Part shown: in pieces, positions 31,562 to 64,000 of the stretch
How the letters are laid out: each line of letters starts with the position of its first letter
Position numbering within the stretch: position 1 is the first letter of the stretch
IMG/VR virus record: IMGVR_UViG_3300047470_000295
Span: 1 to 64,000 of that record
Origin: a virus
Length of the DNA: 64,000 nt
Reading direction: 5' to 3' (one strand)
The notes under the pieces: model-generated
Seen by the model: only the letters and a program-made list of their open reading frames with translations
The model's database searches: none
What the model was told of the DNA's origin: nothing
Position numbers and translations under genes: made by a program

Positions 31562-31562
31562 C

Positions 31563-40647: not shown

Positions 40648-40658
40648 AGTGACACGAC

Positions 40659-40720
40659 TTCGCGTGATCGCGCTACGCGACCGCGACTATCGCTCGCGAA
40701 TGCCGACCGCGAACGCTATT
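40659..40720. repeat. iteron-like direct repeats CGACCGCGA (x2, 26 bp apart, each followed by CTAT) in a CGCG-rich block
   Basis: Copies at 40678-40686 and 40704-12, about 100-140 bp upstream of the replication initiator gene. Confidence 0.35.
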
Positions 40721-40819
40721 CTCATATCTGGAGTCGAGAGATCGCAGAACGAGGGCCTCCCTGAGGCCTGGTTCCGTGCGCCTGAAAACCCTCCAGAACT
40801 CTCCGAAGGACACCTACTC

Positions 40820-43820: not shown

Positions 43821-44011
43821 CCGACTCCTGCCCCAGCTGCTGCCGCCGCGGCATAGCGGCGGCCGCCGAGAAGCGCCGCGGCGACGCGATCGTCCACGGC
43901 TACCAGTGCCCTGGTTGCGGACACCGCTGGGCCACCAGCCGACTCCTGTCGGCCTACTCCGAAGTCCACCGCGCCGCCGAGCGCCGCCGCCAGCAGGGAG
44001 AAGCCGCATGA
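43817..44011 (+). CDS. small zinc-ribbon protein
   Basis: 64 aa with CPSCC...CPGC. Confidence 0.4.
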   Translation: MTDSCPSCCRRGIAAAAEKRRGDAIVHGYQCPGCGHRWATSRLLSAYSEVHRAAERRRQQGEAA

Positions 44012-45603: not shown

Positions 45604-45686
45604 CCTGCCCGAATACCCGCAGGAGGGACCGGTTGATGCCGGAACCCGGCGCGGGAAACCCGAGAAACCCACCGGAAGGACACGAA

Positions 45687-45965
45687 ATGACCGACTACCG
45701 CGTGGAGTTCGGCCCGGACTGGCCCGTCCCGCCGATCACCGTCGACTTCACCGACCGGGGTGCCGCGATCAATGCGGTGACCGAGCACGCACTCCCGCAC
45801 CTGCGGACAGCGCTCGCCGAGAAGGGTCGCCCCGAACTCGCCGACTGCTTCTTCCGCACCGACCGCGAGCTCACCGAGGGCTCGTTCATGTGGATCAACC
45901 TCGCCGAAGGAGTCAGCGCCCTGTTCTGCCCGGCTCGCCTGACCGCCGAGGGGGCGCAGCGATGA
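45687..45965 (+). CDS. hypothetical protein
   Basis: 92 aa from the ATG at 45687. Confidence 0.4.
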   Translation: MTDYRVEFGPDWPVPPITVDFTDRGAAINAVTEHALPHLRTALAEKGRPELADCFFRTDRELTEGSFMWINLAEGVSALFCPARLTAEGAQR

Positions 45966-46249
45966 CCGCACAGACCGAGACCGCGCGCCTGACCGACGAG
46001 CTCCGAGCCGCCGCCGAAGGACTGCGCGACCTCGCCCGAGACGAGATCGCCCGCTCCGACGACCCGCTGACCGTGTTCCGCAACCTGTATGCCGCCGTTG
46101 ACGCGCTTCGTGACGCGTGGCCTGCCCTATCCGAGGCTGCCGGGTTCGAGGACTTCTTCGATCGGGCCGACATCCCGTTCGTCGACACCATCCCGCAGGC
46201 ACTCAAGGCGGCAGCTGACGGGCTGTGGGCCGCGCAAGACGCGATCTGA
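45962..46249 (+). CDS. hypothetical protein
   Basis: 95 aa, ATGA overlap with the upstream gene. Confidence 0.4.
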   Translation: MTAQTETARLTDELRAAAEGLRDLARDEIARSDDPLTVFRNLYAAVDALRDAWPALSEAAGFEDFFDRADIPFVDTIPQALKAAADGLWAAQDAI

Positions 46250-46341
46250 CCGCCCACCCCGTGATCTCCCGCAGCCCGGCCGCCCCTGCACCAATCAGGG
46301 GCGGCCGGCCCTCCGATTCTCTCGCACCCCTGGAGCAACCA

Positions 46342-47334
46342 ATGACCGACGATCTGCCCGCCCGCCTCGAAGCCGCCCTCACGGAACGCTTCACCGAACT
46401 CGGCAACCCATTCTCCGCGATGCGCCGCCACGAGCAGGGCCCTGACGGCTGGCCCGCCTCGCACCCGGTGGGCCCGCACCAGGTAGCCGAGGTGCTGCGC
46501 GAGCTGATCGGTCGGACGGCGGTGGACGGGCCGCGTCTGCCGAACCACACGGTCAACGAGGAAGAGACGCCGGACGCCTGTCACCCCGACGAGTCCATCG
46601 CTGGGTTGCGGCGGCCCGCCCCCCGCGACCGCCACCGCTCCGCCTGGAAGGCACTCACTCCCCAGCAGCAGGCCGCCTACCTTGCCCAGCTCGACAACGA
46701 CAAGGCGCAGCAGAAGCCATGCGCCGAGTGTGATCACCCCAAGGCCGTACACAGCGAGGGTGAGGATCCCGTCAGCCCTGGCCGATGCACGACCTGCCCA
46801 GACAGCGGCGAGGAATGGCACGACTACCAGGCCGCCGAGGCGTCCGCGCCCGCCGACCGCTGCCCGCACGGCTGCAACGTCAGCGTCTGCCCCTGCCTCG
46901 AATGCGAGGCCGAGCAGTCTGCCGCCAACTGGGCCGCGATCCTCCAGCAGGAGGCCGACCGGATCCGCGCCCACTGCCCGGACCACCTCGACAGCGACAG
47001 CCAGCCCGGCTCGTGGATGGTCTGCCACTGCGACGTCGCCGACGACATGCTGCGCCGCCTGGCCGACGCCGCGTCCGGTCCAGGCCGGGCGGACGGCGAG
47101 ACACAGCAGGACGAGACGCCGCGGCCGTGCGTGTGCAGCCACCCGGCCGACGAGCACAGCGTCTACGGCTGCACCGAGGGCTGCGGCTGCGAGTGGATGC
47201 CCAAGCGGCGTCCGGCGATGGACCCGGTCCACATCCTCGGCATCGGATCCGACGAAGACTGCTCGGCGCTGCGTGCCGCTCTCCTCGGTCGCCAGCAGCC
47301 CGCCGCCGTGTCCCAGCCCGGCAAGGAGGCCTGA
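46342..47334 (+). CDS. Cys/His-rich hypothetical protein
   Basis: 330 aa with many CxxC/CxC/HxxC clusters (CAECDHP, CTTCPDSGEEWH, CPHGCNVSVCPCLEC, CHCD, CVCSHPADEH, CTEGCGCEW). Confidence 0.5.
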   Translation: MTDDLPARLEAALTERFTELGNPFSAMRRHEQGPDGWPASHPVGPHQVAEVLRELIGRTAVDGPRLPNHTVNEEETPDACHPDESIAGLRRPAPRDRHRSAWKALTPQQQAAYLAQLDNDKAQQKPCAECDHPKAVHSEGEDPVSPGRCTTCPDSGEEWHDYQAAEASAPADRCPHGCNVSVCPCLECEAEQSAANWAAILQQEADRIRAHCPDHLDSDSQPGSWMVCHCDVADDMLRRLADAASGPGRADGETQQDETPRPCVCSHPADEHSVYGCTEGCGCEWMPKRRPAMDPVHILGIGSDEDCSALRAALLGRQQPAAVSQPGKEA

Positions 47335-47336
47335 CC

Positions 47337-47711
47337 GTGGGTGTCGACTTCTCGCACACGACGGCCCAGTGGGCGTACATCGGCTTCGGTCACTTCCGTC
47401 GGGCCCTGGCACTGTTTGAGGGCATCGACCTCGACGCCATGGCTGGCTTCGGCGGCGACCGGGATTGGTCCACCGTCCACACAGAACTCGCCCCGCTGCT
47501 CGACCACTCGGACTGTGACGGCGAACTAACGCCAGCCCAGTGCCGCCAAGTCGCGCCCCGATTGCGCCAGTTGGTCAACGAACTCTGGCCCGCCGACCGG
47601 GCCGTCTGGGCGATCGACCCTGGGGCCCACCTCAACCGGACAAACGGCCTCGCTCTCGCCGACGGCATGGATGCCGCAGCCGAGACGGGTGAACCGCTCC
47701 AGTTCCGCTGA
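47337..47711 (+). CDS. hypothetical protein
   Basis: 124 aa from the GTG at 47337. Confidence 0.4.
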   Translation: MGVDFSHTTAQWAYIGFGHFRRALALFEGIDLDAMAGFGGDRDWSTVHTELAPLLDHSDCDGELTPAQCRQVAPRLRQLVNELWPADRAVWAIDPGAHLNRTNGLALADGMDAAAETGEPLQFR

Positions 47712-47777
47712 CCCGCCCCGCCGCCCCCGCGTCGTGGGGGCGGCACCCGCACCGCACCACCGCACCTGGAGGAACCC

Positions 47778-47996
47778 GTGACCGTCAACATGCAGGCCAT
47801 CCTCATCGGCCTCTTCTCCGTCAAGCACACCCCCGAGCAGGCCGAGCACGCGGCGAACGAAGTCCTCAGTCAGCACGCCCATGAACTCGCCAAGCAGCAG
47901 CGGGCCTTCGCCGAGGCAGAGGAAGGCGAGCCGGGCTGCTGGCACGACGGGGCTCACGCGATGGCCAACCTCATCGACCCGCAGGCGAAGCGATGA
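47778..47996 (+). CDS. hypothetical protein
   Basis: 72 aa. Confidence 0.35.
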   Translation: MTVNMQAILIGLFSVKHTPEQAEHAANEVLSQHAHELAKQQRAFAEAEEGEPGCWHDGAHAMANLIDPQAKR

Positions 47997-48166
47997 CCGC
48001 CCCGCAGACGCCGGTGTACCTGGACCCGGAGATCGCCGAGATCCTCACCCGCTGCTACCGCGGTGAGCGCAAGCGGGCCGTCATCGCCCGCGCGGTCCGC
48101 ATGCTCGCCACCGCCGACGGCCACCTCGCGCCGAACGGGCGGATCAAGCGCGGGAGGCCGGCGTGA
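47993..48166 (+). CDS. small ribbon-helix-helix-like protein (below the track cutoff)
   Basis: 57 aa hand-translated: MTAPQTPVYLDPEIAEILTRCYRGERKRAVIARAVRMLATADGHLAPNGRIKRGRPA. Overlaps on both sides. Confidence 0.35.
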   Translation: MTAPQTPVYLDPEIAEILTRCYRGERKRAVIARAVRMLATADGHLAPNGRIKRGRPA

Positions 48167-48579
48167 GCCTGCTGTCCGACGTCGAGTTGAAGGTTCTGCG
48201 CGGCACGGCCAATGGCGAGACCTACGCCGAAACGGCCAGCCGGATCTTCATCACCGAGAAGTCCGTGTCGAACGTGGCCACCCGCGTCATGCGGAAGCTC
48301 GACGCCAAGTCCATGCCGCACGCCGTGCACCTCGCCTACCAGGCCGGCCTGTTCCGCCGTGAACGCCACGGCGACCACGCCGGGTTCGCCGCGCACCGCT
48401 ACCGGGACGAGGAGCCATGCGAGGCGTGCTGGGCGGGAGAGCGGGCGTACAGGGCCGAGCAGCGGCAGAAGAGGCGCCAGGAGCCCGCCAGCGGCCATCA
48501 GGGCGCCCCGGAGGCCGCGCGCAGCGGTCGGGACGTCCGAGGCGCTACGAGGGCGGCAGAGGGGCGTACAGCGGCGTGA
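48163..48579 (+). CDS. LuxR/GerE-type HTH regulator with basic Cys-containing tail
   Basis: LSDVELKVLRGTANGETYAETASRIFITEKSVSNVATRVMRKLDA is a classic GerE HTH. Confidence 0.6.
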   Translation: MSLLSDVELKVLRGTANGETYAETASRIFITEKSVSNVATRVMRKLDAKSMPHAVHLAYQAGLFRRERHGDHAGFAAHRYRDEEPCEACWAGERAYRAEQRQKRRQEPASGHQGAPEAARSGRDVRGATRAAEGRTAA

Positions 48580-53229: not shown

Positions 53230-53655
53230 TCAGTGCGGCAGCGCGTCGTCGAGGTACTCCTGCACCGGTCCGAAAAGCCCGTAGGGCACGTAGTCGGCGA
53301 TCTCCGCGTGCGTGATCCAGGCGACCGCGTCGAGCTCCTCGTCGTCTGCGACTCGGGCCTCGCCGCCGACCAGGCGGACCGCGACGTAGTGCATCGGCAC
53401 CTTCGACTTCGGGTGCACCCGGTCGCCGAGCACCTTCACCGACTCGACCTTCAGGCCGGTCTCCTCGTCGACCTCGCGGACCGCGGCCTGCTCCGGTGAC
53501 TCGCCGGCCTCGATCGCGCCGCCCGGGAACACCCAGGAGATCTCACCCTCGGCGGCCCTGCGGCGCGCCATGAGCACCTTGCCCTGGTCGACGATGATCG
53601 CGACCGACACCGGCGGCTTCTCGATCTTCTGCTCGGCAGTCGTCTCGGTCGTCAT
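53230..53655 (-). CDS. Nudix hydrolase
   Basis: 141 aa. Nudix box GGAIEAGESPEQAAVREVDEETGL (GX5EX7REUXEEXGU). Confidence 0.8.
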   Translation of the reverse strand: MTTETTAEQKIEKPPVSVAIIVDQGKVLMARRRAAEGEISWVFPGGAIEAGESPEQAAVREVDEETGLKVESVKVLGDRVHPKSKVPMHYVAVRLVGGEARVADDEELDAVAWITHAEIADYVPYGLFGPVQEYLDDALPH

Positions 53656-54350
53656 ACGGTGGCCTCCAAGGCTTCCAGGATCGGCGGATAGATGCGGTCG
53701 CGGGGGATGTAGCGGGACAGCTCCTCTATCGGAGCCCAAGCCACGTCGGCGTTCTCGGAAGCGTCCCCGTTCACCGCTTCGCCTCGCACGTAGTCGCAGA
53801 TGAAGTAGTCGCAGTAAGCGCGCGTAACCGGATGAAGCCGTTCACCCAAGTGCTCGCGGACCATGCAGTGCACGCCCGTCTCGTCCAGGGTTTCCCTGAC
53901 AGCGACCTTCGGAGCGGACCCGCCCGGCTTCACGATCCCCGCCGGGAACTGCCACGTCATGTCGTCGCCGTCCTGCCTGCACACGAGGAGGACATCACCG
54001 TCGCGGCGCACGACCGCAATGGCCACCCGCAGCGCCTGCGCCTGCATCTGCTGAGCGTGGGCGCGCACGTAGTGGATGAACAGCCTGCGCACCGCATCAC
54101 CTGCCTTTCCGTTGTAGGCCGCGTTGAGAATCCGGCGCGTTTCCAACTTCGGGACCATGTCGGGCGCCTGATGCCAGGCGGCGACCGTCCGGACCGACAC
54201 TCCGAGGCGCGCAGCGAACTCTTCCTGCGTGTCCTCGAAGGCGTCCTGGAGCCAGCAAGCGTGCCGGCCGGTCCACTGGGTGACGTCCACTATCGGCTCC
54301 CTGGCCGCTTCCGTGGGGGTGGTTGCGGCGAACCTGCAGAGTGCCTGCAC
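53652..54350 (-). CDS. HTH-Nudix fusion protein
   Basis: 232 aa. N-terminal HTH (TQEEFAARLGVSVRTVAAWHQ) and C-terminal Nudix box PAGIVKPGGSAPKVAVRETLDETGV. ATGA overlap with the downstream Nudix gene. Confidence 0.7.
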   Translation of the reverse strand: MQALCRFAATTPTEAAREPIVDVTQWTGRHACWLQDAFEDTQEEFAARLGVSVRTVAAWHQAPDMVPKLETRRILNAAYNGKAGDAVRRLFIHYVRAHAQQMQAQALRVAIAVVRRDGDVLLVCRQDGDDMTWQFPAGIVKPGGSAPKVAVRETLDETGVHCMVREHLGERLHPVTRAYCDYFICDYVRGEAVNGDASENADVAWAPIEELSRYIPRDRIYPPILEALEATV

Positions 54351-54437
54351 GCCCGCTGCATGATCACTGCATGCTGCTGCAGAGGGACTTCATGGCCTGA
54401 GGTCGCGCGTGCGCGTTGACTCGACCACATGGATAAG

Positions 54438-54692
54438 TCACTCGCCTTTGCCGAACTGGAAAGCGCGCTGGTACGAGACGCCTCCCATGATTTCCCCGAT
54501 CTCTTTCCACGTCTTCTTCTCGTCCTTCAGCCCCAGGGCGATCTCCTGGCGCTGCCGCCGACGGAAGAGCTCCAGTTCCTCGTCGAGGTGCTTGGCCAGT
54601 TCGATGAAGGCGGCCCATCGCTCGGTGAGGTTCTCGACCGCGCGCAGGTGTTCGTCGAAGGGTGCGAAAGGAGCGTCGTGGGAGTCGGCCAT
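54438..54692 (-). CDS. small regulator-like protein (coiled coil plus C-terminal HTH-like segment)
   Basis: 84 aa ending KTWKEIGEIMGGVSYQRAFQFGK. Divergent from the plus-strand transfer-module run. Confidence 0.4.
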   Translation of the reverse strand: MADSHDAPFAPFDEHLRAVENLTERWAAFIELAKHLDEELELFRRRQRQEIALGLKDEKKTWKEIGEIMGGVSYQRAFQFGKGE

Positions 54693-54949
54693 GACGTGAG
54701 AGTACGGGCGATCCGACGCTCACTCAAGATGCGTCTTGAGAAGTTCAGTTGGGAGCTTGACTCGCCTCGACTGGCCCTCTACGGTCGTACCAAGTCCTCA
54801 AGGCGCCACCTTGAGAACGGCATCGCCGTCCACTCTCACCGGACCTGGTCCGCGGACGGCAGCGCCCCACAAATGAAGACGGGCCGGACACCGCGACTCT
54901 CACCTCGCAGGCCGGCCCTCACCACGAGGAATCTCTGAAGGGTCCCCTC

Positions 54950-55396
54950 ATGGCTACGCAGATCGTACAGAACCGTGCGGGCGCAGCGCGCCCCACCTCC
55001 CCGCTTCCCATGGCGGCGGCGCAGGCGATGCACCGCATCGAGTACGCCCTGGCCGCCCCGCAGCGCGAGCTGGCCGCCAAGGTCGGCGCCGCGCTCGGCT
55101 TCCGGGGCGGATGTCAGCCCCGCGAGGACCTCGGCGAGACGGCGACCCGCCACATCGTCTGGTCGCAGGTCGAGCTGAACGACGTCTTCGAGCGGGTCGG
55201 CGGCACCGTCACCGCCCGCCGGGTGGAGCGTCGCACCTCCGACAGCTCGTCCACCTGGACAGCCACCGAGCTCACCCTCACCGTGAACCTGCCGGACATC
55301 GGCGCCGTCCAGGTCGCCACCGACCTGGAAGAGGAGTCGGAGGTCTACCCCACGGACCTGCCCGTCGTCCGTGCCGCCCGCGCGGTGACGGCATGA
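54950..55396 (+). CDS. hypothetical protein
   Basis: 148 aa, first gene of the plus-strand run. Confidence 0.4.
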   Translation: MATQIVQNRAGAARPTSPLPMAAAQAMHRIEYALAAPQRELAAKVGAALGFRGGCQPREDLGETATRHIVWSQVELNDVFERVGGTVTARRVERRTSDSSSTWTATELTLTVNLPDIGAVQVATDLEEESEVYPTDLPVVRAARAVTA

Positions 55397-55623
55397 GCGC
55401 CCCGGCCGAGGTCGACACCGCCTCCGTCATCGCCGAGCACCGCCGCGTCGAGCGGGTCGTGTCCGGCATGAAGGTCGGCGACACGGCGGTCATCAACGGG
55501 TCCGCGGTTACGGCGGTCAGCCTGACCGAAGCCCTGGTCCTCTCCCGGGCGGAGGCGATGTCGGCGGCCGACCGCCTGGCGCACGACTTCGCCTCCTATG
55601 TCCGGCCGAAGGCGGGTGCGTGA
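55393..55623 (+). CDS. hypothetical protein
   Basis: 76 aa, ATGA overlap with the upstream gene. Confidence 0.35.
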   Translation: MSAPAEVDTASVIAEHRRVERVVSGMKVGDTAVINGSAVTAVSLTEALVLSRAEAMSAADRLAHDFASYVRPKAGA

Positions 55624-55967
55624 TGGCCTCCTCCGTGTCGAACGTGACGAAGCTGCGTTGGCAGCGGGATGCGCATCGTGCCCTCGGGCCCTTGCTGCAG
55701 GTGAACGGTCTCCCGGTCGTCACGTGGACAATCGCCATCTCGGGCGCTCTGGTCGGTGACGTCGATTCGTTGACGTCGACACCGTCCGAGATGCGGGAAG
55801 CGTTCGCCGCCTGGGTCCGACAGTTGGACGCCAAGGCTGCTCCGGAGCGTGTCGACGGCAGTGGCGGCACCCACCTGTACGCCTCGTTCAAGGTCGCCGA
55901 CGGGCCTGACGTCGGCGGGGCGATCCGCGCCACGATCTACCCGCCGTTCGAAGAGGACGGTGCGTGA
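55620..55967 (+). CDS. hypothetical protein
   Basis: 115 aa, GTGA overlap with the upstream gene. Confidence 0.4.
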   Translation: MMASSVSNVTKLRWQRDAHRALGPLLQVNGLPVVTWTIAISGALVGDVDSLTSTPSEMREAFAAWVRQLDAKAAPERVDGSGGTHLYASFKVADGPDVGGAIRATIYPPFEEDGA

Positions 55968-56125
55968 TGGCCGCCGAGACCCTGGACAGCTTCCCCGCCG
56001 GCGGCCCCCGCGGCTCTTGGCCCGCCGAGCAGAAGGCGGCCGAGCTCCGCAAGGCCGGCCAGGAGGTCGAGGTCGTCATGGACCTGGACTCCGACCGCTT
56101 CCTCGTCGTGGCAGGCCGACGGTGA
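55967..56125 (+). CDS. small hypothetical protein
   Basis: 52 aa hand-translated, start overlaps the upstream stop. Confidence 0.3.
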   Translation: MAAETLDSFPAGGPRGSWPAEQKAAELRKAGQEVEVVMDLDSDRFLVVAGRR

Positions 56126-56310
56126 ACCCCGCCGACTACGAGCGGATGATGCGCCGCCTCCACGAGGTCAACGAGCGCAGCAAGAACCCCACCCGCTAAC
56201 CCCCCGAACGGCCGCGTCGGCGGAGAAATCCATCCCCCGGCACCCGTCAGCGCGGCTCACCACCCCGCACCACCCTTCCTCTTCCATTGATCCACGTGAA
56301 AGGCACCCCC

Positions 56311-56550
56311 ATGTCTGTTCTGACCCTCGTCCCGGCCGCCAACGACCCGTTCGACGGCGCTGAGGCCGACCTGCGAGCCCGCTACGTGGCCGCCTACCTC
56401 GCCGACAACCGGTCCGGTGACGTGATCGCCCGCGACTGGACGCTCTACGAGATCGAGATGTACGACGCGGCGAACCCCGGCCAGCCGCCGCTCATGGACG
56501 AGATCGACAGCCTCGACTACCCGGCCGCCGACTACCCGGAAGCCGCCTGA
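56311..56550 (+). CDS. hypothetical acidic protein
   Basis: 79 aa from the ATG at 56311. Confidence 0.35.
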   Translation: MSVLTLVPAANDPFDGAEADLRARYVAAYLADNRSGDVIARDWTLYEIEMYDAANPGQPPLMDEIDSLDYPAADYPEAA

Positions 56551-56744
56551 TGTTCCGCCGTCGCCCGGCCGTCGAGGTTCTCGACGAGCACTTCCACTGC
56601 CCGAGCTGCGGGCCGCTCGTCTTCGGTCAGACCCGAGCGATCTGCGGGGAGATCATCACGCCGCCCATCGTCGGCGACGGCCCCACCCGCAAGTGCCCGC
56701 CCTGTAAGGCATCCGTCCGAACACACAAGAAGGAGACCCACTGA
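56550..56744 (+). CDS. small zinc-ribbon protein
   Basis: 64 aa with CPSCG...CPPC. Confidence 0.35.
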   Translation: MFRRRPAVEVLDEHFHCPSCGPLVFGQTRAICGEIITPPIVGDGPTRKCPPCKASVRTHKKETH

Positions 56745-56932
56745 TGGGCGTCTTCCGCCGCACCGCCGAGCCGACCGGCTACCGCCCCACCGAAGCCGAG
56801 GTCGCCAACGCCGCCGCCCAGCTGAACGCCGGCAGCCAGCATGCCGCCTACGACCTGGCCGCTCACTCAGGTGACCGGCAGCAGGAGACCGCGTTGCGAA
56901 TCCTCGGCCACAGCATCCAGGACCCCGAGTAG
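56744..56932 (+). CDS. small hypothetical protein
   Basis: 62 aa, start overlaps the upstream stop. Confidence 0.35.
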   Translation: MGVFRRTAEPTGYRPTEAEVANAAAQLNAGSQHAAYDLAAHSGDRQQETALRILGHSIQDPE

Positions 56933-57023
56933 CTGACCGGCTGCCCTCGGCCCGCGACGCCGCGCGCGGGCCATGGAGAACTGGCGCAGTGAACCCCCAC
57001 CCCATCTGACCTGTGAGGTCGTC

Positions 57024-57230
57024 ATGTTCCGGATCATCGCCTGGGCGTTGCTCGCCCTGTACCTGCTGATCGTCGGCCTGTGGCCGGCCGCCGCCGCCCC
57101 GGTCGGGCTCGCGTTCGCCGGCCTCGGCGTTCTCCTGGCCGCGATCCCGCTGCCCGCGGTCATCGCCATCGGCGCCGTCATCGCCTGGGAGCTGCGGCAC
57201 CGCTCCAACTCCAAGCCCGCCACCGCCTGA
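57024..57230 (+). CDS. small membrane protein
   Basis: 68 aa with two hydrophobic helices. Confidence 0.4.
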   Translation: MFRIIAWALLALYLLIVGLWPAAAAPVGLAFAGLGVLLAAIPLPAVIAIGAVIAWELRHRSNSKPATA

Positions 57231-57259
57231 CCACCCGCTGATCGCTGAAGGGAGCGGTT

Positions 57260-58519
57260 GTGACTGCCATGTCCGTCGAGAAGAAGGTCAACGGCACTCC
57301 GATGGCCTCGCCCGAGCCGCGGTTCGACCCGCGCGCGCTGGCCGAGGCGGAGGCGATCCGTACCCGAGCCGCCGCCGAAGCCGAAGCCGCCCGAATCAAA
57401 GCCGCCGGTGAAGCCGAGGCCGAGAAGATCAAGGCCGCTGAGGAGGCTCGCAAGCAGAAGATCCTCAACGACAAGGCCGAGTCGCGGGCCCGCGAGGAAG
57501 AGGCGGCGCGGGCGGCCCGCATCGCGGAGTCGAACAGCAAGCGCCAAGAGGCCGAACGCGCCCAGGAGAAGCAGGACCGGGAGGCGCTACAGGCGCAGGA
57601 GGACGAGGCGAAGCTCGCCGAAGAGATCGCCGCCGCCGACGAGAAGTGGCGGGCCTACGCGATCCGCTTCGCGATCGTCTGCGGCATCGTCTCCCTGCCC
57701 GTCCAGATGAGCTTCTTCTGGAACCCGAAGGCGCCCTGGATGGCCGCCGCCCCGATCATGCTCGAAGGCGCCGCGTGGGTCGTCCACCGCGGGGCCCGTG
57801 CGGCGGCTGTCAGTAAGCGGCCCGTCTGGCACTACCGGACGATCGTCTGGCTCCTCGCCCTGATCGCCGCCGGCGTGAACCTCTACCACGGCCTCCACTC
57901 GTTCGACCCGGGCACGGCCATCGCGACCGCGTTCGCATCGATCGCCGGCCCAGGCGTCTGGGACCTCCACGAGCACGGCCGGCTCCGCAAGCGCGACGGG
58001 GCGCTCACCCGCAAGGAGCGCCGGGCGGCCGAGCGCGCCGCCAAGGCCGAGGCCCAACGGCTGGCCGCCGAGCAGCAGAAGAAGGCGGCCGACGAGGGGG
58101 CCGCACGCAAGGCGGCCGAGGCCGCGGCGGCGAAGCTCGCCGCGGACCGCGAGGTGATGTTCCCGAAGGTGTGGCAGCACGCCGTGAAGCTCGCCGCCGA
58201 CCTTGGCCAGACGACTGTCACCAACGCGATCTGGGCCCAGGCCAAGTTCGACGTCGAAGGCGCCAAGCCGGGCGAATCCGCCGACGTCATCCGCATGCGC
58301 AACGCCGCCGAAGCGAGGGTCGCCGCAGCCCGCGAGAAGCGCCCCGTAAACGGATCATCACAGCAGGTCGCATCGCAAGTGCTCGGTCCCAAGCAGAAGC
58401 GCGTCTACAACCCGCCCGCACGCCCCGGAAAGCGCCGCAAGGGCGACGTGAAGTTCACGTCCGCTGCACGCCGCCAGGCGTCCATTGCCGCCAAGCAGAC
58501 CGCCGGAAAGAAGGACTGA
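57260..58519 (+). CDS. DUF2637-like membrane protein with AEAEA/KAAE-rich coiled-coil arms
   Basis: 419 aa. Central 3-4 TM block (FAIVCGIVSLPVQMSFFW, MAAAPIMLEGAAWVV, IVWLLALIAAGVNLY). By recollection this family sits directly upstream of the FtsK-like gene in Streptomyces plasmids and AICEs. Confidence 0.5.
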   Translation: MTAMSVEKKVNGTPMASPEPRFDPRALAEAEAIRTRAAAEAEAARIKAAGEAEAEKIKAAEEARKQKILNDKAESRAREEEAARAARIAESNSKRQEAERAQEKQDREALQAQEDEAKLAEEIAAADEKWRAYAIRFAIVCGIVSLPVQMSFFWNPKAPWMAAAPIMLEGAAWVVHRGARAAAVSKRPVWHYRTIVWLLALIAAGVNLYHGLHSFDPGTAIATAFASIAGPGVWDLHEHGRLRKRDGALTRKERRAAERAAKAEAQRLAAEQQKKAADEGAARKAAEAAAAKLAADREVMFPKVWQHAVKLAADLGQTTVTNAIWAQAKFDVEGAKPGESADVIRMRNAAEARVAAAREKRPVNGSSQQVASQVLGPKQKRVYNPPARPGKRRKGDVKFTSAARRQASIAAKQTAGKKD

Positions 58520-58521
58520 GG

Positions 58522-60627
58522 ATGGCCACCCCGCTGACCGACGAGCGTGCCCCGCTGACCCTCGTCAAGGACACCCCCGAGACGGTCGACCCGGCCGCGG
58601 CGTGGGTCGTGGAGAAGCGGCCCCGCCCCGCCTGGATGATGTCCGGGCAGCAGCTGCGGCAGTGGGCTGTCTACGCCCGCGACAACGCGCTCGACTTCGC
58701 CACCCACCACGCCACCCACTCGCCCTACTACCTCGGCTGGTCGGTGCGCGGCTACCGCCGGCTCTGCCTCCGCTGGTGGCAGGCCCGGCACGACGACTAC
58801 CGGCAGCAGATCGCCACCGCCAAGCTCATGCTCCGCCAGGCCAAGGAGATGCCGCGAGGCACCGCGCGTGCCGCCGAAGAGTCGAAGGCCCGCGCCCTGC
58901 TCGAAGTTCGGCGCACCGAGTTCAAGGCGCACAAGCGGCGCCACTGGATCCGCACCGGCATCAGCGGACTGCTCGTCGTCGGTGGCGCGTCCGCCGTCGC
59001 AGCCCTCGGCAGCTGGTGGATGCAGCTCCTCCTCGTCCTCGCCGTCGTGTTCGCCGGCGCCTACCACGGCCGACCCGAAGAGCGGGCTGTCGCCGCTGCG
59101 CAGGCGCCGACCCGGACGTCGCACCTGGGGGAGGAGACCATGCGGCGCGTCCTCGTCGAGGCCGGCGTCGTCCCCGAGAAGCGGGCCGCCGAGATCCGCG
59201 GCGTCGGCCTGCCCCACACGGAGGGCCCTGGCATCGCCTTCGCCGTCGACCTGCCGTCCGGCATGCCGGCCACGATCGCGCTCGCCAAGAAGAAGGAGAT
59301 CGCCTCAGCTCTCGCCGTCCACAGCGACTGGCTCGACCTCGGCGTGGGCCGCGGCGCAGGCAGCAGCGAATCCCGGCTGGAGATCTGGGTCTCCCGGGAA
59401 GACCCCTTCGCCAGCGCCCACGTCTCCCCGCTCATCGGACACAAGGGCAAGCTCGACCTGTGGAACGACGGCGCCCCGCTCGCCTTCGGGAAGCGCGGGA
59501 ACACCGTCCTTGTCCGCGTGCGCGACACGATGATGCTCGTCGGCGGCGCCACCCGCCGCGGAAAAGGCGTCTTCCTCGCCAACCTCAACCTCGGCGCATG
59601 CAAGGACGTGCGGGTCAACCTGCGGCTCTTCGACGGCAAGGCCTCCGGTGAGCACAACGCCTTCTCTGGGCTGCTCTCCACGTTCGTCAAGAAGAACCCC
59701 GAGCGGCTCACCCTGTTCCTGCGGGCCGTCCTTGAAGACCTCGACCGGCGCAGCGACTTCCTCGACGAGCGCGGCAAGGCCAAGCTGACCGAAGACCTGA
59801 TCGAGGAGATCGGCGGCATCGAGCTCATCGACATCGACGAGTTGGCCACCTACACGGCCAAGGGCACCAGCCCCTACGTCGACGAGATCGTCGAGAGCCT
59901 CGCCCAGATCGGTGCCGTCGGTGCCGGTCTCGGGGTCCTCCTTGTCGCAGCAACGCAGGTCCCGGAAGTCGACGTCGTCCGCGGCCGGCTCCGCCAGAAC
60001 CTGATCTCCCGCGCCGCCATGAACACCGAGTCGCCCAACGCCTCCAACACGATCCTCGGCGACGGCATGGCCGGTCAGGGCTACGACGCGTCGGTGATCC
60101 CGCTCGATCAGCCCGGTCGGTTCTGGTTCAAGTCGCCCGACCTCGGCACGGTGTCGCTTCGCTCGTTCTTCATCGACGACGACGACAAGGCGCCGATCAT
60201 CGCCGATGCCTACGAACTCCGGAAGGCCGCGGGCCGGCTTCCCGGACAGTGGCACGACCCGATCGAGGAGAAGCTCGCCGCCTGGACCGGCGTCTCCTCG
60301 GCCGCCGGCGGGGAGCGCGGCAACGGCCGGATCGTCCGCGTCACCCTGCTGGAGCGGCTGGAGATCCTTGCCAAGCAGACAGGCCGCGGCAACGTCACGA
60401 ACGCCGAGGTGTTCGCCGCACTCGCCACCACCGATCCGGCCAAGTACGGACAGCAGGACGGCGAAACGGGCCACGGCTGGTCGATCCGCGTCGGCAAGAT
60501 CCTGAAGGACGAACTCGACCGCCTCGGCGTCGACATCGAGGCAAAGAAGGTCGCCGGCCCGGACGGGCAACGGACGTCGGGCTACCTGCTCGCAGACGTC
60601 ACTGCCGCCCGAAATGTCCGCAACTGA
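58522..60627 (+). CDS. traB: FtsK/SpoIIIE-family DNA translocase, TraB/TraSA-like
   Basis: 701 aa. N-terminal TM pair (ISGLLVVGGASAVAALGSWWMQLLLVLAVVFAGAY), P-loop-like VGGATRRGKGVF (the final residue is G, not S/T) and Walker B IELIDIDE. DUF2637-like gene upstream and Spd-like genes downstream. Confidence 0.65.
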   Translation: MATPLTDERAPLTLVKDTPETVDPAAAWVVEKRPRPAWMMSGQQLRQWAVYARDNALDFATHHATHSPYYLGWSVRGYRRLCLRWWQARHDDYRQQIATAKLMLRQAKEMPRGTARAAEESKARALLEVRRTEFKAHKRRHWIRTGISGLLVVGGASAVAALGSWWMQLLLVLAVVFAGAYHGRPEERAVAAAQAPTRTSHLGEETMRRVLVEAGVVPEKRAAEIRGVGLPHTEGPGIAFAVDLPSGMPATIALAKKKEIASALAVHSDWLDLGVGRGAGSSESRLEIWVSREDPFASAHVSPLIGHKGKLDLWNDGAPLAFGKRGNTVLVRVRDTMMLVGGATRRGKGVFLANLNLGACKDVRVNLRLFDGKASGEHNAFSGLLSTFVKKNPERLTLFLRAVLEDLDRRSDFLDERGKAKLTEDLIEEIGGIELIDIDELATYTAKGTSPYVDEIVESLAQIGAVGAGLGVLLVAATQVPEVDVVRGRLRQNLISRAAMNTESPNASNTILGDGMAGQGYDASVIPLDQPGRFWFKSPDLGTVSLRSFFIDDDDKAPIIADAYELRKAAGRLPGQWHDPIEEKLAAWTGVSSAAGGERGNGRIVRVTLLERLEILAKQTGRGNVTNAEVFAALATTDPAKYGQQDGETGHGWSIRVGKILKDELDRLGVDIEAKKVAGPDGQRTSGYLLADVTAARNVRN

Positions 60628-60734
60628 CATCGGACAGGCACCGGACCGGGGGCGAAAGAACCGCAGGTCGCGCACCTGACAGGCATCGGACGCCCACAGA
60701 TAGTTCGCGAGCAGTGGGCCCCCACTGTCCGATG
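60628..60734. promoter_or_regulatory. candidate clt (cis-acting transfer locus): three copies of the 8-mer CATCGGAC (two direct, one inverted) plus CCGGAC motifs
   Basis: CATCGGAC at 60628-60635 and 60684-60691, GTCCGATG at 60727-60734, starting 1 nt after the traB-like stop. Confidence 0.4.
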
Positions 60735-60814
60735 CCCGTCCGGTTCCCCACCTGCAGGTTTCCATCCACTGCCCGCTTCTTGTCCGGTCGAAATGCGAGA
60801 AAGGTCCCGGCCCG

Positions 60815-61420
60815 ATGCTCACCCTCAAGATCCAGCAGATGGCTGTCAACGGGCACCCCTACCTGTGCCCCGACTGCGCTTCCCAGGCGTTCACCCTCGA
60901 CGGCCAGGGCTTCATCGACGCCTTCCCCGTCTGGGGCAACTGCTGGAACGGGCACAGCTGGGAAGACCCGCTCATCACCATCGCCCACCTCAAGCAGATC
61001 GACGAAGCCCGCACCGGCCGGCAGCGCGCCGAAGACGACGACACCTTCGAGATCGTCATCGGCGGCGTCCTGCTCGCCGGGATCCTGCACCCCGAACTCA
61101 CCCTCGACGACCTGAAGACGGAGGCTCGCGTCCTATGGAAGCGGGGCCTCAAGCCGACCCTCCGACGCAAGAAGCGGGCCGCTCTCCGCGCCGTGAAGAA
61201 GCCCGTCGCCAACGCGGTCGCCGCCGCCCAAGCCGCCGCGATCGGCGCCGCCTGGGGCCTCCAAGCCGGCGGCCACCAGCCCGACCCCAACTACACGCCC
61301 GAACCCGTCAACGCCTGCCCCGCCTGCACCGGCACCGGCGGCCACGACATCGAAAGCCGCATCCACCAGACCACCCGCATCCGCTGCTCCGTGTGCACCG
61401 GCACCGGCGAAATCGACTAG
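60815..61420 (+). CDS. hypothetical protein with N-terminal zinc ribbon and C-terminal DnaJ-type CxxCxGxG zinc finger
   Basis: 201 aa. CPDCAS...CWNGH, then CPACTGTGGH...CSVCTGTGEI. Confidence 0.45.
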   Translation: MLTLKIQQMAVNGHPYLCPDCASQAFTLDGQGFIDAFPVWGNCWNGHSWEDPLITIAHLKQIDEARTGRQRAEDDDTFEIVIGGVLLAGILHPELTLDDLKTEARVLWKRGLKPTLRRKKRAALRAVKKPVANAVAAAQAAAIGAAWGLQAGGHQPDPNYTPEPVNACPACTGTGGHDIESRIHQTTRIRCSVCTGTGEID

Positions 61421-61435
61421 GAGACCAGGAAATCC

Positions 61436-61621
61436 ATGGAGCGCTACCACTCCCTCTACTTCGTCTCGATCATCGGCCCCGCCATCTTGGGCCTGATCGC
61501 CCTCGCCCTGATCGCTCTCCCCGGCGAACCGAGCACCGCTCGAATGCTCATCGGGCTCGCGGTCTACCTCGCCGTCGTAATCGGCGGTGGCGCAGTCATG
61601 ACTCGACGCCTCGACCGATAG
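61436..61621 (+). CDS. small membrane protein (Spd-like position)
   Basis: 61 aa with two TM helices. Confidence 0.4.
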   Translation: MERYHSLYFVSIIGPAILGLIALALIALPGEPSTARMLIGLAVYLAVVIGGGAVMTRRLDR

Positions 61622-61662
61622 CAGCCACCCCCAACACGCAACTCACCTAAGGAGACCCCACC

Positions 61663-62154
61663 GTGACTGTCCTGCCCGAGCCGACGCCCACCGCCCCCGC
61701 GGCCGGGCAGGCCACCAACCCGCTGACCGACGCCGTCATCACGGCCGCCGTCGACCACGCCATCCATCAAGCCCGCCAGACCGGAACCGCACCCAAGGTC
61801 GTCATCGGCAACGCGCAACCCGTCCCGCAGCCCGACTCGCGGATCGCACCCCAGTGGGCCGTCGGCGTGGCCATCGCGTCCATCGGAGTCGGCGCTGGCT
61901 CGACCGGCCTCGGCTGCGCCGCTTGGCTTGCATGCAAGGGGCTCTCCCTCGTCAGCGTCCCCGGGCTCGAACGCTTCGCCCTCATCGTCATCGCACCCTT
62001 CGTCGGCGCCGCCATGCTCGTCACCGCCGTCGGCGTCGCAATCAGCAGGGCCCGAGCCGCGGCCACCACCATCCACAACCACGGCCCCGTCGACCAGCGC
62101 ACCCTCCACGCGACCAGCAAGGGCGTGTGGGTCAAGAACCACAACGAGCAGTGA
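61663..62154 (+). CDS. polytopic membrane protein (SpdB-like position)
   Basis: 163 aa with a Pro/Ala-rich N-terminus and three hydrophobic segments. Confidence 0.45.
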   Translation: MTVLPEPTPTAPAAGQATNPLTDAVITAAVDHAIHQARQTGTAPKVVIGNAQPVPQPDSRIAPQWAVGVAIASIGVGAGSTGLGCAAWLACKGLSLVSVPGLERFALIVIAPFVGAAMLVTAVGVAISRARAAATTIHNHGPVDQRTLHATSKGVWVKNHNEQ

Positions 62155-62168
62155 CAGAGAGGACCCCG

Positions 62169-62354
62169 ATGAGAAGGAAGACCTACCACTTCAAGGCTGC
62201 AGTCAGCGACGGCAAGCACCACGACGGCGAATGCGAAGGCATCGTCGAAGCCTCCAACGAGACGTCAGCCCGACGCGCCATCGCCGACCAAGTCGTGCAG
62301 GACGGGCGCAAGAACAAGCGTCACTGGACCGCAACCCATATCGAACTGAACTGA
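62169..62354 (+). CDS. small hypothetical protein
   Basis: 61 aa from the ATG at 62169. Confidence 0.35.
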   Translation: MRRKTYHFKAAVSDGKHHDGECEGIVEASNETSARRAIADQVVQDGRKNKRHWTATHIELN

Positions 62355-62368
62355 AGGAGACCACCAGC

Positions 62369-62584
62369 ATGTGTTCTGACGGACCCACCACCAGCTACGG
62401 CTACGAGCTGTCCCCCGGCGACGAGGCCGACCCCGGCGACATCCCCGTCTGCTGCTACGAGCCCATGTCCGGCGTGACGACCGAAGAAGGCGACATCGAC
62501 TACACGTGCGGCGACTGCGGCACCGTCCTAGAGATCAGCCGGAGCGGCGTCGTCGGGGACATCCGCGAAAAGGATGCCGCCTGA
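62369..62584 (+). CDS. small Cys-containing acidic protein
   Basis: 71 aa from the ATG at 62369 after GGAGA. Confidence 0.35.
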   Translation: MCSDGPTTSYGYELSPGDEADPGDIPVCCYEPMSGVTTEEGDIDYTCGDCGTVLEISRSGVVGDIREKDAA

Positions 62585-62635
62585 TGGAGGGACACGCTGA
62601 CTGCTCCTGCAACTGCTGAACTAGCCAGACACGGA

Positions 62636-62675
62636 AGGGCCCCGACCGGGATCATCTCCGGCCGGGGCCTTCGTC
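62636..62675 (+). terminator. hairpin terminator, copy 1 of a duplicated element
   Basis: GGGCCCCGACCGG-loop-CCGGCCGGGGCCTTCGTC. Confidence 0.5.
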
Positions 62676-62762
62676 TGTGAATGGTCACAAGACTGACACT
62701 CCGGCCCAGAGGGTGTACGAGCAGGCGCATGATGCCTCCTCGGACTCGCACCAGGGGGCGTC

Positions 62763-63248
62763 ATGTTCTTCAAGCAGGACCCGGAGAAGGCCGCGCAGAA
62801 GGCCGCCGAGAAAGCGGAGAAGCAGCGGATCCGCGAGGAGGCTGCGGACCAGAAGGCCGCCGATAAGGCGGCACTCAAGGCGTGGCGGGAAGCCCACCCG
62901 GCCGAGCGCACGATGAACACGGCCGCGACGATGAGAACGTGGCCGTCATCGAAGATGGGCGTCACTAACCTGGGGCCGATCAAAGGCGGGTCCGCAGAGT
63001 TCGTCAACGCGGGCGCCCACAAGGGCTGGACAGCTACCCGTCTCATCGCAGGAGCGGCAACGATGGGCACCTCGGCTATGGCGACCGGCCGGAAGAACAA
63101 GGGAGCCGCGGTCATCAACGTGACCTTCGGGAACGGGGCCGCCCAGACGTTCAACGTCAGCCCCGAGAGCCAGACCCTCAGTGCAGCCAACCGCTACGTC
63201 AACGCCTTCAACGCCCTCGCTGCGCAGCTGGCACAGGAGGACGAGTAG
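62763..63248 (+). CDS. hypothetical protein (Lys/Ala-rich N-terminus)
   Basis: 161 aa, bracketed by two near-identical hairpins. Confidence 0.45.
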   Translation: MFFKQDPEKAAQKAAEKAEKQRIREEAADQKAADKAALKAWREAHPAERTMNTAATMRTWPSSKMGVTNLGPIKGGSAEFVNAGAHKGWTATRLIAGAATMGTSAMATGRKNKGAAVINVTFGNGAAQTFNVSPESQTLSAANRYVNAFNALAAQLAQEDE

Positions 63249-63266
63249 CCGCTAACTGGAAACTAC

Positions 63267-63300
63267 GGGGCCCCGACCGTCCTCGGCCGGGGCCTTCGTC
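63267..63300. terminator. hairpin terminator, copy 2 of the duplicated element
   Basis: GGGGCCCCGACCG-tcct-CGGCCGGGGCCTTCGTC. Shares 12 and 17 identical nt with copy 1. Confidence 0.5.
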
Positions 63301-63310
63301 GTGCGGTGGG

Positions 63311-63544
63311 TCAGACGTGTCGCCGGTCTTGAAGCACGAGCGCGATCGCGACACCGGCTGCCGCCGCCGGAAGAACCGCGACCACGGCCACCCAGCCGAG
63401 CCACGAGTCTGGGCCGATGAGTAGGGCGGCGATGGCGCAGGCGGCGGCGGGGACGATCAGGCCGAGCCAGAATCGGCGCTTCATCTGGCGCTCGCTGGCC
63501 TCGCGTTCAAGGCGTGCGCGTTCGGCGGGGCGGTACTGGCTCAT
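63311..63544 (-). CDS. small membrane protein
   Basis: 77 aa from the ATG at 63544 with two TM helices. Confidence 0.4.
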   Translation of the reverse strand: MSQYRPAERARLEREASERQMKRRFWLGLIVPAAACAIAALLIGPDSWLGWVAVVAVLPAAAAGVAIALVLQDRRHV

Positions 63545-63762
63545 CCGCTCTTCTCCTCGCTGCTCGCTGGTCGTTCTGATTCTCCACCAGTCACAGCAAA
63601 GGCCTTCGTCTTGCGGGGGACAGCACGAGCCACCCAGTGCCGGCCGGCCGCGTCGGTGGGGTCCGTGGCGACCTCGGCGTCCATGCGCTCGCAGATCCGC
63701 GCCAACTCCCGTTTGCAGGCGGCTTCGGTTCGCGCCCGGACCATGTAGACGACGTCGCTCAT
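63541..63762 (-). CDS. small hypothetical protein
   Basis: 73 aa, ATGA overlap with the downstream membrane gene. Confidence 0.4.
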   Translation of the reverse strand: MSDVVYMVRARTEAACKRELARICERMDAEVATDPTDAAGRHWVARAVPRKTKAFAVTGGESERPASSEEKSG

Positions 63763-63918
63763 GACGGCAGTGTGGCGGCTCGTCGGCGGCCGTGGGCGGG
63801 TTCACGGGAAGTGACCGTGCACGTCGATAACTGTGCCATTGGCCCAGCGTGTCAACCCCACAGTGCACAATTGGCCTAAGCGTCACTGCTTCCCCGTACC
63901 ACCGCCGAGGAGCCAGCC

Positions 63919-64000
63919 GTGCACGACCACCCCACCCCGAAGCCCTGCCCCGGCCCCTGCAACAACGCCTGGCGACGAGCCGAAGCCGTCCTCGCCGAAG
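63919..64000 (+). CDS. start of an unidentified gene (3' end beyond the window)
   Basis: GTG after GAGGAG. Reads VHDHPTPKPCPGPCNNAWRRAEAVLAE... Confidence 0.3.
   Translation, partial: MHDHPTPKPCPGPCNNAWRRAEAVLAE

Follow-up and report, generated by a model that had tools for sequence, protein, structure and literature searches.

What would a set of genes of the kind that transfers Streptomyces plasmids be doing in the genome of a temperate phage? The question is raised by a 64,000-nucleotide stretch of viral DNA (positions 1 to 64,000 of the IMG/VR virus record IMGVR_UViG_3300047470_000295; hereafter "the window"), in which siphovirus genes are joined to a block at 53.2–63.3 kb that encodes a TraB-like translocase of the FtsK/SpoIIIE type followed by a repeat array resembling the clt loci of conjugative plasmids. 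A first-pass annotation had recognized the block as a candidate transfer module and had left two arrangements side by side, either one replicon with the block between its early and late regions or an actinomycete integrative and conjugative element (AICE) hitch-hiking inside or beside a prophage. We favor, with moderate confidence, the view that the block is a plasmid-type TraB/clt module for the transfer of double-stranded DNA (dsDNA) and an inherited, integral part of a temperate Streptomyces siphophage. The best-supported mechanism would be a virion-independent transfer or spread of the phage genome, of which the transfer itself is what we infer.

The translocase and its repeat array

The translocase starts at the ATG at 58522 behind a ribosome-binding site (RBS; an AAGGA box) rather than at 58171, where the mechanically called open reading frame (ORF) begins. 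It is composed of an N-terminal region, two transmembrane (TM) helices at residues ~145–177, an FtsK alpha/beta motor at ~230–575 and a C-terminal winged-helix-like domain at ~600–700; the two hydrophobic helices, which would form the N-terminal anchor, are helical in the AlphaFold2 (AF2) model as well. The motor was matched by Pfam FtsK_SpoIIIE (24.7 bits, cutoff 24) and phrog_1358 (E 1.6e-32), the family profile aligned to the FtsK motor in the PDB at 4.9e-8, and Foldseek placed the AF2 model (mean confidence pLDDT 70) on FtsK motor structures with E ~1e-16 and a TM-score of 0.6. The best PDB matches were the FtsK motor and the conjugation coupling protein TcpA, and the FtsK-like stretch TQVPEVDVVRGRLRQN is present in the motor. 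An exact-protein look-up returned no record for the translocase and none for the scaffold protein of the phage.

The first-pass annotation had also pointed to an atypical Walker A loop with glycine in place of serine or threonine, and this peculiarity is real. The loop reads GGATRRGKG, with Gly349 at the position of the Ser/Thr, and departs from the canonical GxxGxGK[ST]; the glycine is invariant in all 24 of the 24 aligned homologues, down to 61% identity, and is also found in the Streptomyces plasmid pZL1. In the translation of one plasmid, JCM17656, a frame error was disregarded. The Walker B motif (IDIDE; IDELATY) is intact. The C-terminal domain, when modeled alone (pLDDT 90), has the topology H-b-H-H-b-b, and its top Foldseek neighbors are all winged-helix DNA binders (PadR/LmrR, Orc1 and forkhead; E≥0.06).

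By homology the pump belongs with plasmids. A tblastn search of the translocase against 50,697 phage records gave no match at E≤1e-5, and neither did a megablast search of 53–64 kb against phages, whereas the same protein matched 49 plasmids at 25–46% identity, 45 of them from Streptomyces. Alignment of the family profile to Tra of pIJ101 with hhalign (E 5.2e-5 at a modest probability of 67%; 444 columns, query 52–537 versus Tra 20–518) spans the N-terminus, the TM region and the motor. This bears out the earlier description of the gene set as one of Streptomyces plasmid type, as opposed to an FtsK-like gene of the ordinary phage kind.

Directly 3′ of the translocase gene, where the first-pass annotation had noted 8-mer repeats at the place expected of a clt, lies an array of eight phased units. 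The spacer behind the translocase stop codon is 187 bp long, and six exact copies of AYCGGAC fall within 160 bp of it (60629–60788), out of 22 observed on both strands of the whole window against ~31 expected by chance; the clustering after the translocase gene is far beyond chance. From 5′ to 3′, the array consists of two units 11 bp apart, a spacer, the heptamer GCAGGTC, two direct units, ~40 bp, two inverted units, the hexamer ACCTGC and two further inverted units, so that two direct pairs flank GCAGGTC and two inverted pairs flank ACCTGC. A degenerate extra pair sits inside the 3′ end of the translocase gene (60559–60575), and on its other side the array adjoins the RBS of the gene for a conserved cysteine-rich protein of 201 amino acids (aa).

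We aligned the window with nine and then with twenty-five related loci (26 loci in all; related loci and contigs carry L numbers below); a peptide-pattern scan of genome contigs made for this alignment gave 6 loci, a yield limited by the patterns chosen. The architecture of the array is kept in 26 of 26 loci. The sequence of the unit varies between loci and is identical at all eight positions within a locus, and at least seven unit types can be told apart: ATCGGACA, GGTCGGACA, GGTCTGMCA, GGTMCGWCA, CCCCTGACA, GACCCTGCC and CCCGTGAYG. As array types non-cognate to that of the window we name GGTCTGCCA, CCCCTGACA and CCCGTGATG.

The anchors GCAGGTC (60663–60669) and ACCTGC (60750–60755) are themselves near-invariant among the 26 loci, differing by a single base in L027, L031 and L032. 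The two lie ~80 bp apart in inverted orientation and stand in the same columns in pZL1 (L021, ~10527–10630); a binding site for a second factor, a promoter element and the base of a cruciform are candidate roles.

The link between array and pump comes from co-variation. For this comparison the translocase was split into its motor (residues 230–575) and its C-terminal domain (600–695), and the loci were compared pairwise. C-terminal identity was 75% in pairs of the same unit type versus 52% in pairs of different types; after regression on motor identity the same-type pairs kept an excess of 15.8 percentage points, a value reached by 0 of 5000 label permutations. Unit type follows the C-terminal domain and not the motor, as individual pairs illustrate: between L035 and L037 identity is 96% for the motor against 24% for the C-terminal domain, and their units differ, L028 resembles L029 and L034 at 94–95% in the motor and at 38–39% in the C-terminal domain, and L016 and L018 share 67% of the motor, 86% of the C-terminal domain and the same unit. 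Because of the same-type excess and these pairs, the C-terminal domain and the array appear to be exchanged together as a single cassette, a pattern that looks like the signature of a TraB/clt pair, and because the unit sequence co-varies with the C-terminal domain, the array is predicted to be the cognate recognition site (clt, or TraB recognition sequence, TRS) of the pump.

Experimentally defined systems offer a close parallel. TraB of pSVH1 recognizes 8-bp repeats via helix 3 of the winged helix-turn-helix (wHTH) at its C-terminus, and the clt of pWTY27 comprises 16 bp within traA and 159 bp downstream of it and contains direct and inverted 7-bp repeats to which TraA binds (PMC3583192). 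By analogy, the combination of array and C-terminal domain seen here seems to match the clt loci of both plasmids.

Position of the block in the phage genome

The window DNA is GC-rich (65–72%) and Streptomyces-like. Our gene map, made from gene calling based on GC content at third codon positions (GC3) and from family scans, gives the order late genes, attP, int, repressor, early genes, transfer module (Table 1). The gene set is that of a temperate siphovirus (Caudoviricetes), with terminase and portal seen only in relatives, outside the window. As the first-pass annotation had it, the window opens in the head module, with genes for a VG15/MuF-like protein, scaffold and capsid. Replication genes in the window are those of a DnaD-like initiator and a DnaB helicase, its maintenance genes are the integrase and attP, and no ParA or ParB was found among those window ORFs that were scanned, which were not all of them.

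The site next to the integrase gene had been interpreted as an unintegrated attP, and we agree. It lies 95 bp from the integrase gene and holds a 3′ fragment of an acyl-CoA dehydrogenase gene (26891–26971) with stop codons upstream, so that there is no full gene, and phage DNA flanks it on both sides. Because the attP holds a mere 3′ fragment with phage DNA to either side, the window represents an unintegrated permutation of the genome. As the fragment carries the last ~29 codons and the stop codon, the phage probably integrates into, and restores, the 3′ end of this protein-coding gene rather than a tRNA gene. The Logan contig L006, from one sample, ends exactly at 26891, and this precise break suggests that free and integrated forms were both present in that sample.

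Beyond the end of the window the module runs into phage head genes. The Logan contig L001 is 100% identical to 58796–64000 and continues 4.3 kb past the window into genes of head type, namely one for a Gp80/phrog_240 head-fiber-like protein and one for a homologue of gp13 with more than 775 aa (L001 6773–9535, equal to 65568–68330 in window numbering). This second ORF matches phrog_14065 (E 2e-209), the family of gp13 of the Hiyaavirus phages Keanu and Hiyaa, and has a long Ala/Thr/Gly-rich repetitive tail; it had been considered as a terminase, and its identity as a gp13 homologue with such a tail rules this out. Both genes should be positioned 5′ of the expected terminase site. L001 ends within the repeats of the gp13 homologue, and in phage Keanu the homologue stands between the capsid and adaptor genes.

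Relatives close the remaining gap. In a 5.7-kb IMG/VR relative that is 94.5% identical to window positions 1–3189, the portal gene and the end of the terminase gene lie 5′ of the point where the window starts. This relative was the sole hit when viral contigs were scanned with exact patterns for the source contig; genome contigs and metagenomes, scanned likewise, gave none. In a 72,331-bp JGI contig, whose pump is 91% identical to that of the window, the early genes (HIT) lead into a pair of Nudix genes and some small genes, after which come the genes for the membrane protein, the pump and the zinc-ribbon-like protein. Small genes fill the next 5 kb, and beyond them are encoded a 200-aa protein, a TerL with 50% identity to its counterpart in Streptomyces phages such as Yara, a portal of SPP1 type, a MuF-like protein and the scaffold. 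Terminase, portal or head genes were found within 10 kb 3′ of the module in nine loci (L008, L022, L024, L026, L028, L029, L030, L033 and L034), and in L026 and L030 a portal of the window's type is followed by VG15 and scaffold, that is, by the starting point of the window. The translocase gene is present in 17 viral contigs of IMG/VR, 11 of which are 56–94 kb long with the gene well inside, and close homologues also lie within closed Streptomyces chromosomes, with proteins of 86–90% identity in strains of S. mirabilis and S. avermitilis; the synteny of the module is held in more than 20 independent elements. On this comparative evidence, the module appears to belong to one phage replicon, between its early and late regions, which is the first of the two arrangements originally proposed.

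Companion genes, known systems and rival explanations

The Nudix genes that had been called are two in number, both on the minus strand. The true start of the first is probably near 53643, judged from a 137-aa homologue in L008; its matches to MutT-like families of NCBIfam stay under their cutoffs, and homologues at 60–64% identity occupy the same place in L008, L025, L032, L034 and L035. The second is a fusion to a helix-turn-helix (HTH) domain, and its slot, divergent from the transfer operon, is held by a GntR/UTRA regulator in several relatives (L010 and one JGI contig) and in the plasmids pZL1 and pIJ101. The seven small ORFs that head the operon gave no family match in scans of Pfam, PHROG and NCBIfam; those at 55964–56125 and 56973–57230, the latter encoding a protein with two TM helices, are kept 5′ of the translocase gene in most related loci.

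The protein encoded directly upstream of the pump, which had been described as DUF2637-like, is indeed a membrane protein with about four TM helices, and homologues at 30–41% identity lie immediately 5′ of the translocase in most loci. The family name has fared less well: neither this 419-aa protein nor three homologues match Pfam DUF2637 at E≤10, the protein matches no other Pfam family at that cutoff either, and the affinity is limited to BLASTP, which aligns 72 aa (E 3e-5) with the protein annotated as DUF2637 at the same position of pZL1.

On the other side of the array, the gene for the 201-aa protein (MLTLKIQQM...) follows directly in 23 of the 24 related loci that cover this position (all but L017 and L018), with homologues at 43–81% identity; it bears CxxC pairs at each end and may act as a partner to the pump. 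Of the ORFs of 61–201 aa at 60.8–63.8 kb, three have predicted TM helices on a simple hydropathy scan (61436–61621, 61663–62154 and 63311–63544 on the minus strand), and a weak single-TM call in an overlapping minus-strand ORF (62500–62730) was set aside. The membrane proteins at 61436–62154 occupy the position of the spd genes 3′ of tra on plasmids (compare tra-spdA-spdB of pIJ101), so the suggested string of small membrane proteins in Spd position holds as far as position and TM helices go, and a Spd family assignment does not.

Several known systems resemble this arrangement. The TraB/clt plasmids (with pIJ101 Tra, pSVH1 TraB, pWTY27 TraA and pJV1) resemble the window in having a single FtsK-like pump anchored in the membrane, which ends in a wHTH (in the window, a winged-helix-like domain), and a clt, putative in the window, whose 7–9-bp repeats and inverted repeats stand at the 3′ end of the pump gene or just behind it. 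A regulator of GntR type in divergent orientation and, downstream, small membrane proteins also belong to the set; in pIJ101 the order is korA (GntR), divergent from tra, then spdA, spdB and kilB. The window differs from them in its GKG instead of GK[ST] Walker A, in its host replicon, which is a phage, in downstream proteins that are not recognizable as Spd, and in an array with a strictly conserved 4+4 phased palindromic layout framed by GCAGGTC and ACCTGC. The closest annotated module with full context is that of pZL1 (NC_023316.1, from Streptomyces sp. 14R-10), whose pump is 38.6% identical. Its order is that of the window: a GntR gene diverges from small genes, after which DUF2637, one small gene, FtsK/SpoIIIE and more small genes follow, with NUDIX further on. 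The pump has GKG in its Walker A as well, and 3′ of its gene stand paired repeats within a GCAGGTC...ACCTGC frame. Unlike the window, pZL1 is a circular plasmid of 128 kb in which the terminase probe found no match, and NCBI calls its membrane protein DUF2637. The idea that pump-bearing Streptomyces plasmids are phage-plasmids was dropped after none of them matched the terminase probe, the one test applied to it. Separately, a 90-kb "plasmid" of Streptomonospora litoralis (H45, NZ_CP036456.1) has, at 46797–48290, the gene of a TerL that shares 45% identity with its counterpart in the L008 phage; this replicon may be an unrecognized actinobacterial phage-plasmid.

For the phage side, the first-pass annotation knew of no characterized case of such an arrangement, and here it has to be corrected. 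The circular 90,435-bp genome of pZL12, or phage ZL12 (GQ919031), was reportedly described by Zhong et al. in 2010 (J Bacteriol 192:3747). It is a Streptomyces tailed-phage genome with an FtsK/SpoIIIE-type tra locus, in the order GntR (.80), small genes including a Nudix-like one (.76c), a 398-aa membrane protein (.73c), a 766-aa protein (.72c), the FtsK/SpoIIIE-like gene (.71c), a few small genes, two hypotheticals similar to mycobacteriophage Gp7 proteins (.67c and.66c; presumably terminase and portal) and tail-like genes. Its layout is like that of the window, from the regulator, small genes, a membrane protein of ~400 aa and the FtsK/SpoIIIE gene to the start of the phage late operon, and a Nudix-like gene lies within its tra region as Nudix genes lie near the module of the window. 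In contrast, pZL12 is a 90-kb plasmid-prophage maintained by ParAB while the window element integrates via a tyrosine integrase and attP, its proteins are barely alignable with those of the window (BLASTP E 0.07, P-loop region only), and it alone has a canonical GSGKT Walker A and the extra 766-aa gene. [quoted passage not shown] The arrangement in the window is not unprecedented, being an integrating, apparently widespread variant of the pZL12 kind.

AICEs such as pSAM2 and SLP1 combine a tyrosine integrase, excision, replication, TraB-type dsDNA transfer and Nudix (pif) immunity (PMC2440964; PMC9513070), and their life cycle is the one we propose for the window element; however, they measure 9–24 kb, lack virion genes and mostly use a tRNA attB, whereas the window element is ~75 kb long with a full siphovirus late region. 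Lytic Streptomyces phages (for example Jaresh and AndoPrime; phrog_1358) have the FtsK motor domain in common with the translocase, and their FtsK/SpoIIIE-like genes, treated as developmental mimics, are described without mention of a clt-like array (PMC13587820). Our literature searches turned up no description of such a tra module in integrating prophages, and the paper on the Samy prophage makes no mention of FtsK.

In the mechanism that we propose, the steps concerning regulator, operon, C-terminal domain and array are read at the level of sequence, and those concerning transfer and the recipient are inferred. A divergent regulator (here the HTH-Nudix fusion and the second Nudix protein, in relatives GntR/UTRA) would control an operon of small proteins that also encodes the 4-TM coiled-coil membrane protein and a membrane-anchored, presumably hexameric pump of FtsK fold. 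The pump would bear the winged-helix-like C-terminal domain, and the eight phased 9-bp units directly 3′ of its gene would be its cognate recognition site. Once the genome is a free circle, either following infection or upon excision by Int from its attB in the acyl-CoA dehydrogenase gene, the pump might load on the array and move the unprocessed dsDNA genome into a neighboring hypha or across septal cross-walls, with the downstream membrane proteins aiding the spread; in the recipient the genome could integrate or go lytic. The Nudix proteins may have a regulatory role or confer immunity in the manner of pif. Virions and AICE-like conjugation would then be two routes by which the element spreads. 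More speculatively, and with somewhat less than even confidence, we suggest that a widespread lineage of integrating Streptomyces siphophages is simultaneously an AICE, with its excised genome moved from mycelium to mycelium and inside each, free of virions, by a TraB of the GKG variant that loads on an eight-site clt, and with at least seven orthogonal TraB-clt classes, generated by swaps of the "winged-helix domain plus array" cassette, that keep co-resident elements off each other's pump.

If the module works, the phage would have two independent horizontal routes, in virions and by conjugation-like dsDNA pumping, and the boundary between prophage and AICE would be blurred in the main antibiotic-producing genus, with consequences for the interpretation of gene flow in Streptomyces and of the host range and immunity of prophages; the precedent of pZL12 tempers this. 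The motif types, at least seven in number, and the swapped C-terminal domains that go with them form a natural data set for decoding how TraB winged-helix domains read 8–9-bp sites and could be used for orthogonal DNA-transfer tools, and the conserved GKG P-loop poses a mechanistic question on the use of ATP in this clade.

A number of observations weigh against this interpretation. The Pfam score of the translocase is just at threshold, the Foldseek matches of its C-terminal domain are non-significant, the 419-aa membrane protein is not recognized as DUF2637 by Pfam, and the downstream proteins match no Spd family in Pfam, NCBIfam or PHROG. With the Walker A Ser/Thr replaced by Gly throughout, ATP hydrolysis may be atypical or absent. 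The array stands directly 5′ of the RBS of the next gene and could be an operator for another protein, and its co-variation with the C-terminal domain could partly stem from physical linkage, as the two are adjacent in the DNA. The circle is closed solely via relatives, the window's own terminase/portal junction not having been recovered, and transfer, DNA binding and ATPase activity of the family are predicted from sequence and models.

Four other explanations deserve attention in this light. The pump and its site might serve segregation or spread within one mycelium, moving or anchoring the phage genome across sporulation septa and cross-walls in the manner of a SpoIIIE/FtsK-like rescue, for spore inheritance or infection of neighboring compartments and with no transfer between individuals. 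The fold of chromosomal FtsK, the membrane anchor, a single localized loading site in place of genome-wide polar motifs, and the discussion of Streptomyces phage FtsK/SpoIIIE-like genes in relation to host development (PMC13587820) would all suit such a role; yet the nearest relatives are plasmid proteins and pIJ101 Tra, which stands for intermycelial transfer plus spreading, both roles are compatible on plasmids, and an integrated prophage needs no such device for its inheritance, and we regard this explanation as unlikely. It is quite unlikely, in our estimate, that membrane ATPase and Nudix proteins act in exclusion, defense or host manipulation, guarding the lysogen against plasmids, AICEs and phages or disturbing host division, with the array as a transcriptional operator. 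Eight phased sites that swap with the pump's own DNA-binding-like domain are hard to fit to the operator of another factor, and synteny and homology with plasmid transfer loci speak against it too, even though a role in conjugal exclusion is cited for the Nudix protein pif (PMC9513070), FtsK/HerA-fold ATPases are known in defense systems and appear among the weaker Foldseek matches, and the array does stand before the next gene.

The loss of the Walker A Ser/Thr invites the further thought that the transfer module, once acquired from a plasmid, no longer functions and is passively carried. However, GKG is invariant across homologues down to ~60% identity and present in the plasmid pZL1, the 8-unit array is preserved, as are Walker B and the TQxPEVDV/Arg region, and the complete copies showed no frameshifts, features that together argue for purifying selection on the module; we give an inactive relic little credence. 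As to an independent AICE inserted in or beside the prophage, the stretch of lower-GC minus-strand genes (49–55 kb) that sets the module apart from the early operon would speak in its favor. Against this, scans of the ORFs at 48–68 kb against Pfam, PHROGs or NCBIfam, which left out several of the small ones, showed no second integrase, Rep or Xis, and no direct repeat of at least 17 bp links 45–56 kb with 60.6–68.3 kb. The block has phage genes on both flanks, and both the minus-strand genes and the module keep their neighbors (HIT/LuxR upstream, terminase downstream) in many diverged elements. Because neither a second integrase or rep gene in the ORFs scanned nor a bracketing direct repeat was found, and with the same synteny in more than 20 independent elements, we reject a nested or adjacent AICE, which is largely refuted and retains only a slight residual chance.

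Feature coordinates and minor observations

Table 1. Features of the window, in window coordinates
Feature	Position	Strand	Properties
Siphovirus late region	3..19141	+	VG15/MuF-like protein, scaffold, major capsid protein, GT4 glycosyltransferase, head-tail adaptors, tail terminator, major tail protein, chaperone, 1656-aa tape measure, tail proteins, endolysin
attP core region	26891..26971	+	last ~29 codons and stop of acyl-CoA dehydrogenase; Pfam Acyl-CoA_dh_1 positions 121–149 of 150, E 6e-8
Tyrosine integrase	27067..28359	-	Pfam Phage_integrase; sole integrase-family match among window ORFs scanned
cI-like HTH repressor	28709..29293	-	Pfam HTH_31/HTH_3; divergent from early operon
Early/replication region	29678..48579	+	RecE-like exonuclease, DNA methyltransferases, DnaD-like initiator, DnaB helicase, LuxR-type regulator
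Lower-GC stretch, minus-strand genes	48.8–54.7 kb	-	
Nudix hydrolase 1	53230..53739	-	mechanically called ORF; Pfam NUDIX E 1.1e-24
HTH-Nudix fusion	53652..54350	-	Pfam NUDIX E 1.4e-15 and weak N-terminal HTH_3; divergent from transfer operon
Transfer operon	54950–63248	+	
Seven small ORFs heading the operon	54950–55396, 55620–55967, 55964–56125, 56287–56550, 56550–56744, 56744–56932, 56973–57230	+	GC3-based calls
419-aa membrane protein	57260..58519	+	~4 TM helices flanked by long Glu/Ala/Lys-rich coiled-coil regions
TraB-like dsDNA translocase	58522..60627	+	701 aa
clt-like array	60628..60790		eight ~9-bp units (AYCGGACR) in four pairs, 11-bp phasing
Conserved 201-aa protein	60815..61420	+	N- and C-terminal Cys-rich (zinc-ribbon-like) motifs; weak DnaJ_CXXCXGXG match
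Small membrane protein	61436–61621	+	2 TM
Small membrane protein	61663–62154	+	1–2 TM; phrog_19266
161-aa protein	62763..63248	+	last complete plus-strand gene of the window
Small ORF with predicted TM	63311–63544	-	simple hydropathy scan

The 161-aa protein at the end of the operon served to find the contig that extends the window. Among the small genes 3′ of the module, the 86,849-bp JGI contig L011 carries an IS605 OrfB/TnpB (Cas12f-like) gene (10072–11280, minus strand).

Elsewhere in the phage genome, a GT4-family glycosyltransferase gene (2337–3362, plus strand) lies directly 3′ of the major capsid gene within the head module and may serve virion glycosylation. The tape measure (7274–12244, plus strand; 1656 aa) strongly matches the "endolysin" family phrog_971 over residues ~1046–1602 (E 6e-130) and probably contains embedded cell-wall hydrolase domains. 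At least two DNA methyltransferase genes of the early region (37265–38068 and 43906–45603, plus strand) probably act against restriction. In the moron region between the lysis genes and attP, Rfam reports a full-length tRNA match at 25058–25136 (plus strand; 35.4 bits, E 4e-5) where ARAGORN calls none. An ENA relative that is 97% identical (L005, 3283–4216) departs from the window at 25757 and has a GntR gene there instead; this point is a mosaic boundary in the moron region adjoining attP.

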